This document shows positions 51,331 to 53,720 of a stretch of DNA of 64,000 nucleotides, piece after piece. A model generated the notes under the pieces. That model did not search any database. It saw only the letters and a list, made by a program, of their open reading frames with translations, and was not told the DNA's origin. Origin of the DNA: Euglena gracilis (taxonomy: Eukaryota). The stretch spans positions 43,150,632-43,214,631 of the forward strand of contig CP154954.1 of the NCBI GenBank assembly GCA_039621445.1, read 5' to 3'. A program made the translations under genes and the position numbers. Position 1 is the first letter of the stretch, and the number at the start of each line of letters is the position of its first letter.

Positions 51331-53720
51331 ATGGCAGCCCCACACGCCGCCCCGGGGGACGGCGCCTCGGAGCGGGGCTCCCCCGCCCCCGCCACGCCAC
51401 CCACACCCGGGGCGGCGCTGAAGCGCTCCGCCTCGAAGGTAGACCCCGAGTACCTGCTGGCCAGGGGGCCGCCTCCTTGCGCAACGGGGGTCCCAGGCAC
51501 AACATCACAGTAGGAATGGCCCGACCCCCCCCCCCAGGGGGGTGGAGGTGGGGGACGGCCAGGGACCAAAGGTCGAGCACCAGGAAAATTGTTGAGGAAA
51601 TGGTCAAATCGATGGATTTTGAGCCAGTTTGACGAGGGGGTCCCAAGTCAGATTTTGATTGAAGAAGCCAGAGTCACCGCCCCCCAGGTCCAACCTCTGA
51701 GTCGGAAGTGGCTGACTGGTTTTCCATGAGTGATTGGCTGGTCGTTGTGTTGTGTGTGATTTTTGAAGTCGTTAGTGACCCCCCTCCCCCAGGTGGGGGT
51801 GGGGGGGTCAATAAGTCATGTTCTGATCCAGGGGTGAGCAAGGGGCTGCACCAGTCTATGTTCGTATCCTGTTTTTGTTTTGCAAGCAGCACCCGCAAAG
51901 ATACCACTGTAACGTCCCGCAGCAAAGCTATGGCCGTGTTGTACAAATTTGCAGTCCCGGCATGGTGGCCACTCTGTTCATGATTTCCAAATTGTGTGTC
52001 TGCCTCTGCAGGGCGCACAAAACTGGAAAGACCAAAGCGATTTCTTTGGCAAGGAAATCCACTCTTTATATATACATATATTTTTGTTTATATTTCAGTT
52101 TTATATTTTTTTAATTTGTTTTTATTACATTATTTTATTCATTTTTTTTTTCAAATGCTAGGGGTTGAGCCGCTGTGCTGGCGGTTCTCTGCCCGCGGCT
52201 TTGCAGAAGTACATCGGGCGCCAGGAGCGGAACCACCGGCAGCTGTCCCGCAAGAAGCCCATGCCGGCACCCCCGGCCCCGGCAGTGGCAGCGCTGCGTG
52301 TGATGTTCATGCAAGCAAAAGTGCTGTGGCAGTGGCAGCCTTGCGTGCGTTGTGTGCATCATGGAAAGAAGGACACCGGTCTTATTTTTTGCCTCTCACT
52401 CTGAAATAGAAAGGCGACGCTTCTTGTGTTTCAAGATTTCTCATAATTTCATTTGAACTGCATGACCACACCACTTTGGGGGGGAGATTGCAGGTTTGTG
52501 TGTGTGTGTGTGTGTGTGTGTGTGTGTGTGTGTGTGTGTGTGTGTGTGTGTGTGTGTGTGTGTGTGTGTGTGTGTGTGTGTGTGTGTGTGTGTGTGTGTG
52601 TGTGTGTGTGTGTGTGTGTGTGTGTGTGTGTGTGTGTGTGTGTGTGTGTGTGTGTGTGTGTGTGTGTGTGTGTGTGTGTGTGTGCGCGCGCGCGCACACA
52701 TGTGCGTGCGTGTTGTCCACTGCGCCCCCACCTGGGGGAGGCATTCATCAGTCAGATGCCGCCTTAGGCAAAGAGAAATGGCAGAAGATCTTCCTTGGAC
52801 GTATGCGCATATGTGTATTTTTGTAGGTGTGTGTGTGCATTGTGGTTGACCCCACCCAAATTGGTGGAAGATTTCGACAGATTTGGGGTCCATGGGGAGG
52901 ACTGAGCAGGAATCCCAGAAACCAGAAATTCAAGAAAATGGGTTGTGGATGGGTTGGTCGACCCCCCCCCTCTCCACCACCCACCCCCCTGCCTGTTTTT
53001 TTCCACGGGGGCGAATTTGGATCAAAATTTGCTTTCGGGCCACCGGTGCCAAAAGAATTGTCCCCTGCAAAATGCTTTGGTGGGTGGGGGGTCGACCCCC
53101 CCCCACACCACGCTTTGCACAGCCCCAGCCCTGGGGGGGGGGGGGTCGTGGAAGGACGGATGGGTTTTGGTGCTGGGGACAGTAAGAAACCCTCCGGCCC
53201 CCGGTTTGAAGGGGACGTCCTGGCCCCCAGCCCGCCCCCCCCCCCGGCGCTGCCCCTCGCACGGCGCCGCCCCCCAGCGCCGCCGCCGCGTGGTCGGTGG
53301 AGGAGGTGTGCACCTTCCAGGCTTCTGCTTAAGGGTTCGCAGAACCCCCTGGTGGGGGCTCGACCCCGGGTGACCCCGATTTGGCTTGGGGAAATCCTAT
53401 TGGCCCTCCCGGGGGGGGGGGGGGGCTTGCTGGGGGGATGCCTGGAAACAAGTCAGCCAAAGAAAAACACATAAAAGCCCTTCTCCACCTTGGGGCGGTC
53501 CACCGCAGCGCCAGAAGAACGTTGTTCCCAGGCGGGGGGACCCCCAGGGTCCCCCGGTCCGCAAACTGGTTCGCCAGTGGAAAGGGGGTCTTTCAAAATA
53601 GAAGAGGCCTGGCACCTTCGTCCGGGCCAGCCTGGCGGAGGCGTTCCCGGCCGAACCCACGGCGGCGGAGCCCGTGGTGGCCGCCGTGCGGCGTGAGCTG
53701 GTGGACGGCTCCCGCCTGGG
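51331..53720 (+). CDS. 5' exons of a host gene with a SAM-like domain (exons ~51331-51458, 52197-52260, 53181-53314, 53617-~53718)
   Basis: Non-conventional splicing gives ...DPEYLLALQKYIGRQERNHRQLSRKKPSKKP...WSVEEVCTFVRASLAEAF...VVAAVRRELVDGSRL. It needs one extra C in the poly-C at ~53235-53245. Confidence 0.55.
52497..52684. repeat. (GT)n microsatellite, intronic
   Basis: Direct reading. Confidence 0.95.
53318..53611. mobile_element. hAT-like MITE that forms a non-conventional intron (53315-53616)
   Basis: TIRs CAGGCTTCT / AGAGGCCTG and perfect 8-bp TSD GCACCTTC (53310-53317, 53612-53619). Removal restores VCTF/VRASL. Confidence 0.8.

Follow-up and report, generated by a model that had tools for sequence, protein, structure and literature searches.

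Two exonic copies of a probable MITE with 8-bp flanking repeats, probably removed as non-conventional introns, in a Euglena gracilis gene

The introners of Micromonas and Aureococcus, reported by Huff, Zilberman and Roy in 2016, are said to be non-autonomous DNA transposons that become introns upon insertion, and their target-site duplication reportedly helps with exact removal. Other non-canonical introns with a mobile character are the invasive intronic elements of Amoebophrya and the MITE-derived introns of Fritillaria borealis, as presented in the accessible parts of PMC7789003 and PMC11282704. Euglenids have non-conventional introns, which amount to approximately 72% of all introns in E. 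agilis (PMC12501133, 2025, accessible text). The splicing code of these introns, N3CDG/CH'GN5-6|R, was defined by knock-in mutagenesis, and "slidable" introns with junction repeats were excluded from motif discovery (PMC12501133, Nomura et al. 2025, accessible text). Additionally, the accessible part of PMC4770533 describes intron 4 of gapC in E. agilis ACOI 323 as a recent, strain-specific gain of a non-conventional intron with eight-nucleotide direct repeats. In the literature, as far as its accessible text goes, the origin of the class is termed "unclear" or "MITE-like", and the element family is unnamed. Both the idea that such introns derive from MITEs and the case of a young intron with an 8-nt repeat have, to that extent, been published before. 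A search of openly accessible articles returned no link between an 8-bp duplication and 3 + 5 spacers, and no mention of hAT elements, introners or a named element family for Euglena introns. The locus described below addresses two questions that the accessible literature leaves open, namely where these introns come from and why their spacers are fixed at 3 nt and 5–6 nt.

The window, i.e., the whole stretch of DNA that was analysed, comprises 64,000 nucleotides of Euglena gracilis (contig CP154954.1), and positions are counted from its first letter. The gene under study is as follows:

52261 to 61950 (3' limit approximate), + strand: host gene, whose product is conserved in euglenids and matches no Pfam family (RNA and homolog colinearity)

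Its exons number at least 16 and its introns at least 15. Twelve junctions were obtained from RNA and three from colinearity with the homologs P0001, P0003 and P0007; the reading frame is open through all 15 of them. Over a stretch of 263 aa, the host protein shows 99.2% identity with P0001, and its first 87 residues align without gaps to the euglenid homolog P0007 across the insertion site of the first element considered here, E1. GT/GC..AG ends were found in none of the 15 introns in any permitted register, including the nine registers each of E1 and of the second exonic element, E4. The coding segment was called SAM-like in the earlier note, and this remains a lead only. SAM-domain clusters come first in an ESM Atlas feature search, with scores of 0.86–0.87 that lie below its reliability line, but P0007 and P0003 match no Pfam family at E <= 0.01, and a PDB search gave no match.

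Element E1 and its surroundings have the following parts:

53310 to 53317, + strand: upstream octamer GCACCTTC of E1 (direct-repeat search)
53318 to 53611, + strand: E1, 294 bp, subfamily B, ends CAGGC...GCCTG (inverted-repeat search, alignment)
53612 to 53619, + strand: downstream octamer GCACCTTC of E1 (direct-repeat search)
53315 to 53616, + strand: E1 intron according to the published code, TTC-CAG...CTG-GCACC, 302 nt (RNA joint and code fit)

The repeat search returned GCACCTTC as 100% identical copies on both sides of E1, which bears out the 8-bp repeats that had been claimed around an inverted-repeat element at 53310–53619. The element starts with CAGGCTTCTGCT and ends with AGAAGAGGCCTG; its terminal inverted repeats (TIRs) are 13 nt long and 85% complementary, and its GC content is 0.63. 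At a per-site match probability of 0.253 (52–62 kb), an 8/8 match at a fixed place has a P of approximately 1.7e-5, and such a match occurred in 0 of 132 mismatched 5'/3' junction pairs of the host gene. The joined flanks read ...WSVEEVCTF|VRASL... in a single open frame, just as was claimed for the removal of the element plus one repeat. Under the code, the mRNA octamer at this site would be made up of the first 5 nt of the upstream copy (N3 rule) and the last 3 nt of the downstream copy (N5 rule). The removal can be placed in nine registers, all of which give the identical mRNA.

Sequence data from several sources cover this region. X1 and X2 are contig sets from different studies and are taken to be RNA because they contain exons only; X21 is raw RNA-seq, of which about 5% of the run was read, and X20 is a DNA-like run with approximately 25x coverage over the locus. 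The mapping of reads and contigs covered E1, E4 and the inner part of the host gene. Across 53290–53640, RNA lacking E1 together with exactly one octamer copy is confirmed, as the earlier note had expected. The joint 53309>53612 skips 302 nt with 8 ambiguous letters and was found in one X1 contig, one X2 contig and two X21 raw reads, and in none of the X20 contigs. RNA depth is low over the unique 3' half of E1. The joint-bearing contigs of X1 and X2 include eight more listed non-GT-AG joints, while a ninth, 54799>55160, was put together from pieces of one X1 contig; the junction repeats of those eight other introns measure only 0–4 nt.

Several haplotypes are present at the locus; the window and X20, for instance, differ 8 times within 240 nt. 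The joint 53309>53612 occurs on both SNP backgrounds at position 53623, namely C (X1) and G (X2, X21), and both of these backgrounds carry E1 in DNA (the window and record 9 of X20). The X20 haplotype has the change 53610 T>G, by which CGG replaces the 3' CTG of E1. The pairing of a 5' CAG with a 3' CGG falls outside the published code (PMC12501133). Joined transcripts that share the exonic SNPs of this haplotype at 53623 and 53655 exist despite the CGG, which weighs against the main reading given below. No empty site or insertion polymorphism was seen in the X20 contigs over the locus, which is weak evidence since contigs drop rare variants.

The follow-up also brought to light an element that does not appear in the earlier note. 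It is likewise exonic and is removed in the same manner as E1:

55511 to 55518, + strand: upstream octamer CCCCCGAT of E4 (sequence, code fit)
55519 to 55821, + strand: E4, subfamily A, with a CAG...CTG core at 55519–55820 (302 nt) (sequence, alignment, depth)
55822 to 55829, + strand: downstream octamer CCCCCGAT of E4 (sequence, code fit)
55516 to 55826, + strand: E4 intron, 311 nt, GAT-CAG...CTG-CCCCCC|G, its 3' spacer being 6 nt long (RNA joint and code fit)

E4 lies between 8/8 repeats of CCCCCGAT, with an extra C at 55821 between CTG and the downstream copy, and its TIRs match at 12 of 14 positions. The joint 55510>55822 skips 311 nt with 8 ambiguous letters and was found in one contig each of X1 and X2; there were no X20 contigs with it and no reads in the approximately 5% of X21.

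The two exonic elements can be compared with the published splicing code (PMC12501133). Both fit the pattern N3-CAG...CTG-N5-6, with CAG at +4 to +6 and CTG ahead of the 3' spacer in each: this spacer is N5 in E1, whereas in E4 it is N6 and a purine (G) opens the downstream exon. The code prefers this purine without requiring it; the downstream exon of E1 starts with T, yet E1 is removed. Six of the 12 RNA-supported introns of the host gene fit the code. The earlier proposal that 3 nt and 5 nt add up to one 8-bp duplication is correct for E1 (3 + 5 = 8) but fails for E4, where the geometry is 3 + 6 = 9 because one additional C sits between CTG and the repeat. The spacer rule is therefore not always 3 + 5 = 8. 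The terminal duplex energies are -19.3 kcal/mol for E1 and -13.3 kcal/mol for E4, and a strong terminal duplex, from -13 to -40 kcal/mol, is present in all 15 introns. Additional or wobble pairs lengthen the stems, which spreads the unpaired-spacer offsets over a range of -3 to 7, and consequently they are no test of the 3/5 geometry. The minimum free energy fold of the whole intron leaves the termini unpaired, and its stability does not exceed that of shuffled sequences (z -0.69); as GC-rich runs inside the intron compete with the terminal stem, this fold is uninformative on whether that stem forms. An excess of junction repeats beyond chance, for which the earlier note had asked across all such introns, was sought in the 12 RNA-supported introns of this one gene. 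When E1 and E4 are set aside, the best 8-nt window of the remaining 10 has a mean of 4.5 matches vs 3.76 in mismatched pairs, a value reached in 24 of 5000 permutations.

Three further elements of the family lie in the window:

47958 to 48259, + strand: E2, subfamily A, in AT-rich non-coding DNA (repeat search, alignment)
61086 to 61465, + strand: E3, subfamily B, within the intron 60770–61787 (repeat search, alignment)
63930 to 64000, - strand: E5, a partial copy ending at the window edge (motif scan, alignment)

In all, five elements with common termini, similar to CAGGCYTNTGCTTAAGG, are found inside 17 kb. E2 and E3 had been described earlier as related CAGGC-ended elements with 8-bp flanking repeats. 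The elements stood up to the analysis, but their repeats are imperfect. E2 has a TIR of 14 nt (93%) and flanks TTTGGACC/CTTGGACC that match at 7 of 8 positions, which is weaker evidence because the motif TTGGACC recurs approximately 50 nt downstream; E3 has a TIR of 17 nt (88%) and flanks ATTGGCGG/GTTGGCAG that match at 6 of 8. The TIRs therefore range from 13 to 17 nt at 85–93% in E1, E2 and E3, with 12/14 in E4, and the flanking repeats are 8/8 in E1, 8/8 with a 1-nt spacer in E4, 7/8 in E2 and 6/8 in E3. The GC content of E2 is 0.68 vs 0.36 in its flanks, and after its excision in silico no frame across the site is open for more than 33 codons. E5 is in inverted orientation and matches the 3' end of E2 with 79% identity across 71 nt. 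Alignment separates two subfamilies (E1–E3, z 10.2; E2–E4, z 13.1), each of which has one member in an exon and another in non-coding sequence.

Copy number was also examined by depth and by scanning. The DNA word depth in X20 is approximately 1120 over E4 vs approximately 25 in adjacent unique bins, and 860 over the 5' half of E1 vs 24 over its 3' half. The latter value is that of a single-copy sequence at >=95% identity, which means that E1 does not belong to a large set of nearly identical elements. Its first 31 nt are common to nine DNA contigs, which diverge from 53349 on. When at most 2 mismatches are allowed, the terminal motif CAGGCYTNTGCTTA has 11 matches in the window vs 2.2 expected, and 0 of 100 shuffles reach 11; three of the 11 come from a single retroelement sequence that is repeated and has no relation to the MITEs. 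A metagenome scan with a 25-nt terminal consensus of E1 and E3 gave 0 matches, and a scan with a 17-nt consensus and up to 5 mismatches gave 14 vs 2–12 in shuffles, so that the signal is not separated from background. A strict scan for CAG...CTG pairs with a TIR of at least 11/14 and flank matching yielded 78 pairs, of which the best flank match, 6/8, is E3. It misses E1 (TIR 10/14) and E2 (end CATG) and was therefore used solely as a background distribution.

Our main reading, to which we assign a probability of roughly 0.8, is that a MITE family inserts with an 8-bp target-site duplication and that its exonic copies E1 and E4 are removed by the non-conventional intron pathway. Non-autonomous DNA transposons (MITEs) of approximately 300–380 bp would insert with this duplication, and their ends, CAGGC...GCCTG, would form terminal inverted repeats able to pair. 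Two copies, E1 and E4, would have entered coding exons of the host gene. Once transcribed and paired, their termini would provide the signal of the pathway, i.e., CAG at +4 to +6 with CTG and then 5–6 nt, and the cuts would fall 3 nt ahead of CAG and 5 nt past CTG (6 nt in E4). Cuts at these positions would remove the element and the equivalent of one duplication copy and would therefore restore the pre-insertion frame; thus, the exonic insertion of such a MITE would be an intron from the start. The older introns of the host gene may be decayed copies, to judge from their appearance. The loss from RNA, the duplications, the non-coding relatives and the fit to the code support the earlier hypothesis that MITE insertions give rise to new introns. 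The repeats would have been made by transposition, and the match between spacer sum and duplication length would be causal.

Each of these steps can be explained in other ways. The joined RNA might be the transcript of an allele or paralog without the element, i.e., the result of a presence/absence polymorphism and not of splicing. Contigs do not reveal from which template a transcript was copied, multiple haplotypes exist at the locus, and an empty site could have been dropped from the X20 contigs as a rare variant. We nevertheless consider this very unlikely, as neither joint is present in any X20 contig at approximately 25x, joined RNA occurs on both SNP backgrounds (53623, 53655) that bear the element in DNA, the removed stretches match a code shown by knock-in to be sufficient (PMC12501133, accessible text), and the other 13 introns of the host gene are all non-conventional too. 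Still harder to believe is that the joint is an artefact of reverse transcriptase jumping from one 8-nt repeat to the other. Short direct repeats do favour such template switching, but here two studies have the joined form in their assemblies, and a third has it in raw reads; the same contigs also lack eight introns whose junction repeats are only 0–4 nt, RNA depth over the unique half of E1 is low, and the joined product is in frame and colinear with homologs. On the side of DNA, the 8-nt repeats could be scars of double-strand-break repair with filler DNA, which is how the eight-nucleotide repeats of the E. agilis gapC intron are interpreted in the accessible part of PMC4770533, and no transposase is known for E1–E5. 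This seems improbable given that inverted-repeat ends are common to at least five elements in two subfamilies, including AT-rich non-coding and intronic copies, that DNA depth indicates many further copies, and that the repeat length is equal at two independent exonic sites. Spread through RNA has also to be considered, since non-conventional introns are excised as full-length circles according to the review PMC11282704 (accessible text), and reverse splicing of a circle followed by reverse transcription would make them mobile without DNA transposition. An intron carried by RNA, however, would bring the spacers of its old site and not a perfect repeat of the new exon, which was seen twice (8/8), and E2 is located in non-coding AT-rich DNA; we consider this route very unlikely.

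The same mechanism could operate with transposons of different superfamilies. CAG termini with 8-bp target-site duplications are typical of hAT elements, whose TIRs have the terminal consensus YARNG. The Euglena elements are candidate hAT relatives by their 8-bp duplication and CAG termini, the only two features behind the "hAT-like" label. They resemble hAT MITEs in the duplication, the short TIRs starting with CAG, the small non-coding body and the multiple copies, and they differ in having C, not G, at terminal position 5; the termini, CAGGC (as in E1) or CAGCC, agree with just 4 of the 5 positions of YARNG. According to Pfam, there is no transposase, of hAT or any other type, and no autonomous element among the window ORFs (18 window ORFs): some long ORFs in 1–45 kb have retroelement domains and weak coiled-coil-type matches, others have none, and the smaller ORFs have no match. 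Membership in another superfamily with 8–9-bp duplications (Merlin, P or an undescribed group) is a real prospect, although we lean against it. Merlin families with 8-bp duplications are documented in E. gracilis by the accessible part of PMC8101967, and E4 can be read as having a 9-nt repeat with 8 of 9 positions matching, within the 8–9 bp of Merlin. However, all Merlin TIRs begin with GG according to the same accessible text, whereas E1 and E4 begin with CA and end with TG. Since CAG and CTG border on their perfect 8-nt repeats, the elements have CAG...CTG ends rather than GG...CC ends.

The main reading can be extended from these two insertions to the pathway as a whole. The splicing code itself may have been set by the length of a transposon duplication, the transposons being of the DNA type, ending in CAG...CTG and making duplications of 8 bp or, in some cases, 9 bp. 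The spacers would then be fixed so as to remove one duplication copy, most of the approximately 70% non-conventional introns would be decayed transposon copies, and the pathway would be a co-evolved RNA-level excision system. We put the chances of this at slightly below even. An insertion would be harmless because the spacer sum equals the duplication length, as proposed here, and the excised circle would carry the element with one reconstituted target octamer at its junction. If this were true genome-wide, it would explain hundreds of thousands of introns gained without the spliceosome, recast the splicing machinery as a transposon-taming system and provide a natural, portable, self-removing insertion cassette for genome engineering. 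The value of the present locus is that transposon copies, still recognisable and with their 8-bp duplications preserved, probably act as introns there already, beside their non-exonic sisters.

E1 and E4 are members of the euglenid class of non-conventional introns (Milanowski et al. 2014, 2016; Nomura et al. 2025; accessible texts). They share with it the lack of a GT/GC-AG register, the paired termini, CAG at +4 to +6, CTG followed by 5 or 6 nt and the absence from RNA. They differ in that they can be recognised as copies of a repeated TIR element whose 8-bp duplication is still intact and which has further copies in non-coding DNA. Intron 4 of E. agilis gapC is similar in its 8-nt direct repeats at the junctions of a non-conventional intron; its authors read these as double-strand-break repair in the accessible part of PMC4770533, and its comparison with E1 and E4 was made by description and not by sequence. 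The Amoebophrya and Fritillaria introns also have terminal inverted and direct repeats and are read as MITE-like, but their direct repeats are 3–5 nt long vs 8 in Euglena (PMC7789003, PMC11282704, accessible parts). Removal in Fritillaria is attributed to a modified spliceosome (PMC11282704), while the Euglena pathway has circle products and fixed spacers of 3 and 5–6 nt. As in the introners, which are said to turn from transposon into intron on insertion, with the duplication taking part in exact removal, the Euglena elements would combine insertion with precise loss from RNA. Introners reportedly depend on the spliceosome and on GT-AG sites formed partly from the duplication, whereas the Euglena code is defined by a stem and uses no splice dinucleotides. 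The Euglena system works like an introner but, with no GT/GC-AG register, is not a member of that group in the spliceosomal sense.

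A short element with inverted-repeat ends, E1, interrupts a coding exon of the host gene, and related elements lie elsewhere in the same gene and around it.

Features of the element family in the window (TIR, terminal inverted repeat)
52261-61950 (+), host gene, 15 introns
53310-53317 and 53612-53619, octamer GCACCTTC, direct copies bordering E1
53318-53611, E1, exonic element
55511-55518, upstream octamer CCCCCGAT of E4
55519-55820, core of E4, the second exonic element, CAGCCTTCTTTTTAAGG...AAAAGAAGCCTG, directly 3' of the upstream octamer
55822-55829, downstream CCCCCGAT of E4, preceded by one extra C
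47958-48259, E2, in AT-rich non-coding DNA; TIR 14 nt at 93%; flank match 7/8
61086-61465, E3, inside an intron; TIR 17 nt at 88%; flank match 6/8
63930-64000 (-), E5, partial copy

Between its octamers, E1 spans 294 bp, starts with CAGGCTTCTGCT, ends with AGAAGAGGCCTG and carries a 13-nt TIR that is 85% complementary in a repeat search. An 8/8 octamer match at a fixed place has a P of ~1.7e-5, given the per-site match probability of 0.253 in the region. The exact 8-nt direct repeats described in the earlier note were found, and its claim that removing E1 with one repeat restores the coding frame was borne out, as the flanks joined minus one octamer read ...WSVEEVCTFVRASL... in an open frame.

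Removal in RNA was followed by aligning reads and contigs to 52700-58500 from X1 and X2 (contig sets from different studies), X20 (the best DNA run) and X21 (a raw RNA-seq run, ~5% read). X1 and X2 hold exons only, and their contigs contain 8 more of the listed joints from this transcript; for this reason they act as transcriptomes, which their records leave unstated. A ninth further joint, 54799>55160, was inferred from pieces of X1 record 3.

Joints that skip the exonic elements
53309>53612 (E1), skips 302 nt, 8 ambiguous letters: X1, 1 contig, depth 21; X2, 1 contig, depth 34; X21, 2 reads, 2 starts, shorter side 48 nt; X20, 0 contigs
55510>55822 (E4), skips 311 nt, 8 ambiguous letters: X1 and X2, 1 contig each; X21, 0 reads; X20, 0 contigs

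The predicted transcript lacking E1 and one repeat across 53290-53640 was thus recovered in contigs and raw reads, and neither joint occurs in X20 contigs at a locus depth of ~25x. The second joint reveals E4, which the earlier note had not listed and which divides what is otherwise an 80-nt exon. A reverse-transcriptase artefact, in which the joined RNA would arise by copying across the repeats, is unlikely, since the joined form was assembled in two studies and is present in raw reads of a third; moreover, 8 other listed introns with short or no junction repeats are missing from the same contigs. An element-free allele as the RNA source is disfavored as well. Position 53623, next to the E1 joint, is C in X1, whereas X2 and X21 both have G, and element-bearing DNA exists on both backgrounds (C in the window; G in X20 record 9, which runs from the element interior into the exon). 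At register +4 of this joint the skipped part reads CT..AC, that is, GT..AG on the minus strand, which is treated as a coincidence because transcript and ORF are on the plus strand. Many RNA and DNA reads also break off within long C-tracts (53733-53756, 54860-54883, 56622-56640) or skip from one tract to another, as in the backward joints 56640>53733 and 54880>53733 and in poly-C loose ends. Homopolymer runs are common in the window, and mapping or sequencing artefacts at such runs are the probable cause.

The host gene is read from the plus strand, with a probable start at 52261. RNA supplies twelve of its junctions (two through loose ends mapped onto the window), and three were inferred from homolog colinearity; the frame is open across all 15. 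Over 263 aa the spliced product shares 99.2% identity with the homolog P0001, its residues 1-87 align without gaps to another homolog, P0007, across the E1 site, and exon 57412-57552 shows 100% identity to a protein labelled EG_transcript_24550. Labels of this form are used in the Euglena gracilis transcriptome, and the sequencing runs that matched the window all bear one species name. Neither a Pfam family nor a PDB relative was found for the protein; its possibly "SAM-like" N-terminus (Atlas scores 0.86-0.87) serves as a lead only. The Logan database protein P0002 (287 aa) is a translation through retained introns of this gene, with exon-encoded stretches split by unrelated sequence, and illustrates the errors that non-conventional introns cause in automatic gene prediction. 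All 15 introns are non-conventional; whatever the register, none is bounded by GT/GC..AG, and each has a strong duplex between its ends (-13 to -40 kcal/mol).

Nomura et al. 2025 (PMC12501133) give the signature of such introns, set by knock-in mutagenesis, as 5'-N3CDG-/-CH'GN5-6|R, with a strict 5' spacer of 3 nt and a 3' spacer of 5 nt, 6 being tolerated. Earlier work had located CAG at +4..+6, with CTG at -8..-6 (PMC3935182; review PMC11282704). Both E1 (TTC-CAG...CTG-GCACC|T) and E4 (GAT-CAG...CTG-CCCCCC|G) match the code. Because the elements end in CAG and CTG and are bordered by an 8-bp duplication, the N3 spacer before CAG is formed by the last three bases of the upstream octamer (positions 6-8), and the N5 spacer after CTG by the first five of the downstream octamer (positions 1-5). 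Cuts at the N3/N5 positions would take out the element plus one octamer equivalent. The proposed sum, 3 + 5 nt equal to one 8-bp target-site duplication (TSD), holds for E1 and fails for E4, whose extra C raises the required sum to 9 (3+6; 311 = 302+9); E4 represents the N6 form, and its downstream exon begins with a purine. The code is matched exactly by 6 of the 12 RNA-supported introns; others retain a stem in a comparable position but with different triplets.

Junction repeats of these 12 introns measure 4, 8, 1, 2, 4, 4, 8, 2, 0, 2, 1 and 4 nt, with 4-nt repeats in 4/10 of the older ones. With E1 and E4 left out, the 10 remaining introns match at a mean of 4.5 positions in their best 8-nt window across the junction, vs 3.76 in 132 mismatched 5'/3' pairs; the mean of 4.5 is reached by 24/5000 derangements. 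This excess would fit decaying duplications, within one gene whose flanks are GC-rich and of low complexity.

One haplotype does not follow the code. Over 53514-53753, X20 differs from the window at 8 of 240 nt, including 53610 T>G, which turns the 3' CTG of E1 into CGG, and 53614 A>G, position 3 of the downstream octamer. The published code would reject CGG paired with a 5' CAG (PMC12501133). Joined transcripts with this haplotype's exonic SNPs (53623, 53655) are nonetheless present in X2 and X21; splicing of the CGG haplotype would conflict with the code. The X2 mRNA octamer matches GCACCTTC at 8 unambiguous positions; if its template was the X20 haplotype, the upstream octamer supplied position 3, in agreement with the N3/N5 rule. 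Contigs cannot prove a transcript's template, and at 53663 the X2 sequence departs from that of X20.

The two relatives named in the earlier note, E2 and E3, are real elements, but their 8-bp flanking repeats are imperfect; that of E2 is weaker evidence because TTGGACC recurs ~50 nt downstream. CAGGCYTNTKCTTAAGG is common to all termini, and a run of C or G comes after it. E1 groups with E3 (alignment z 10.2 vs shuffles) and E2 with E4 (z 13.1), so each subfamily has one coding-exon intron copy and one copy elsewhere. E5, inverted, is 79% identical over 71 nt to the E2 3' end. E2 forms a GC 0.68 block within GC 0.36 DNA, and no frame longer than 33 codons is open across its site. E3 lies within intron 60770-61787; it matches the N3-CAG...CTG-N5/6 layout itself (CGG-CAG...CTG-GTTGG) and, from these ends, could be removable as a nested intron. 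The first 31 nt of E1 are common to nine X20 contigs, which diverge at 53349, and its 3' half has single-copy depth. Word depth in X20 is ~1120 in both E4 bins vs ~25 in unique neighboring bins; summed depth is not copy number, and it is read here as evidence for no more than the existence of many related copies.

Other repeats are abundant. X20 word depth reaches ~4600-5900 at 52894-53281 and ~72000 at 58326-58500, vs ~25 in unique sequence, which indicates other high-copy repeats in introns flanking exons. A perfect (TG)94 microsatellite occupies 52497-52684 in host-gene intron 1, AT/GT-rich arrays lie at 58552-58750 in another intron, and an (AGAC)n array is located at 50239-50344. Window positions 1-46000 contain at least two similar copies of Ty3/gypsy chromovirus ORFs (RVT_1, RT_RNaseH, rve, Integrase_H2C2, chromo), each followed by very long ORFs (12185-17488, 33289-38889; up to 1866 aa) with no Pfam family. 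Sequence starting CAGGCGTATGCTTC recurs at 2441, 18607 and 23484.

No transposase was found among the Pfam-searched ORFs of the window (long ORFs in 1-45 kb, smaller ones near the host gene). Informative matches in the long ORFs were to chromovirus domains (RVT_1, RNase H, rve, chromo); of the remainder, a few had weak coiled-coil-type matches alone and several none, and the smaller ORFs matched no Pfam family. The 8-bp duplication and CAG termini tentatively suggest hAT (probability roughly 0.35-0.4), and the terminal pentamer agrees at 4/5 positions with the hAT consensus. Another or unknown superfamily is about as likely. Merlin elements with 8-bp duplications are known in E. gracilis, but according to the same source every Merlin TIR begins with GG (PMC8101967), and here the perfect repeats adjoin CAG/CTG.

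Insertion by a transposon also has to be weighed against origins that involve none. Spread as RNA-mediated introns would bring along the spacers of the old site without duplicating the new target. Repair of double-strand breaks could leave 8-nt repeats as scars, and it was proposed for the eight-nucleotide repeat at a recently gained gapC intron of E. agilis (PMC4770533); it leaves the shared inverted-repeat termini, the subfamilies and the non-coding copies unaccounted for. The gapC case is taken here as separate evidence favoring a length of 8 nt.

In the open-access main texts searched, we found no statement that the spacers sum to the TSD length, no named Euglena element family with intron and non-exonic copies, and no superfamily assignment. 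Several components are already published: the MITE hypothesis appeared in 2014 and again in 2016, 2024 and 2025; a 2024 review describes "TSD-like" junction repeats; a young intron with one eight-nucleotide repeat was reported in 2016; and the N3/N5-6 code dates from 2025. Nomura et al. left junction-repeat introns out of motif discovery and called the origin of non-conventional introns unclear (PMC12501133). The finding at this locus is most probably one of transposon-made introns, acting here via the non-conventional pathway.
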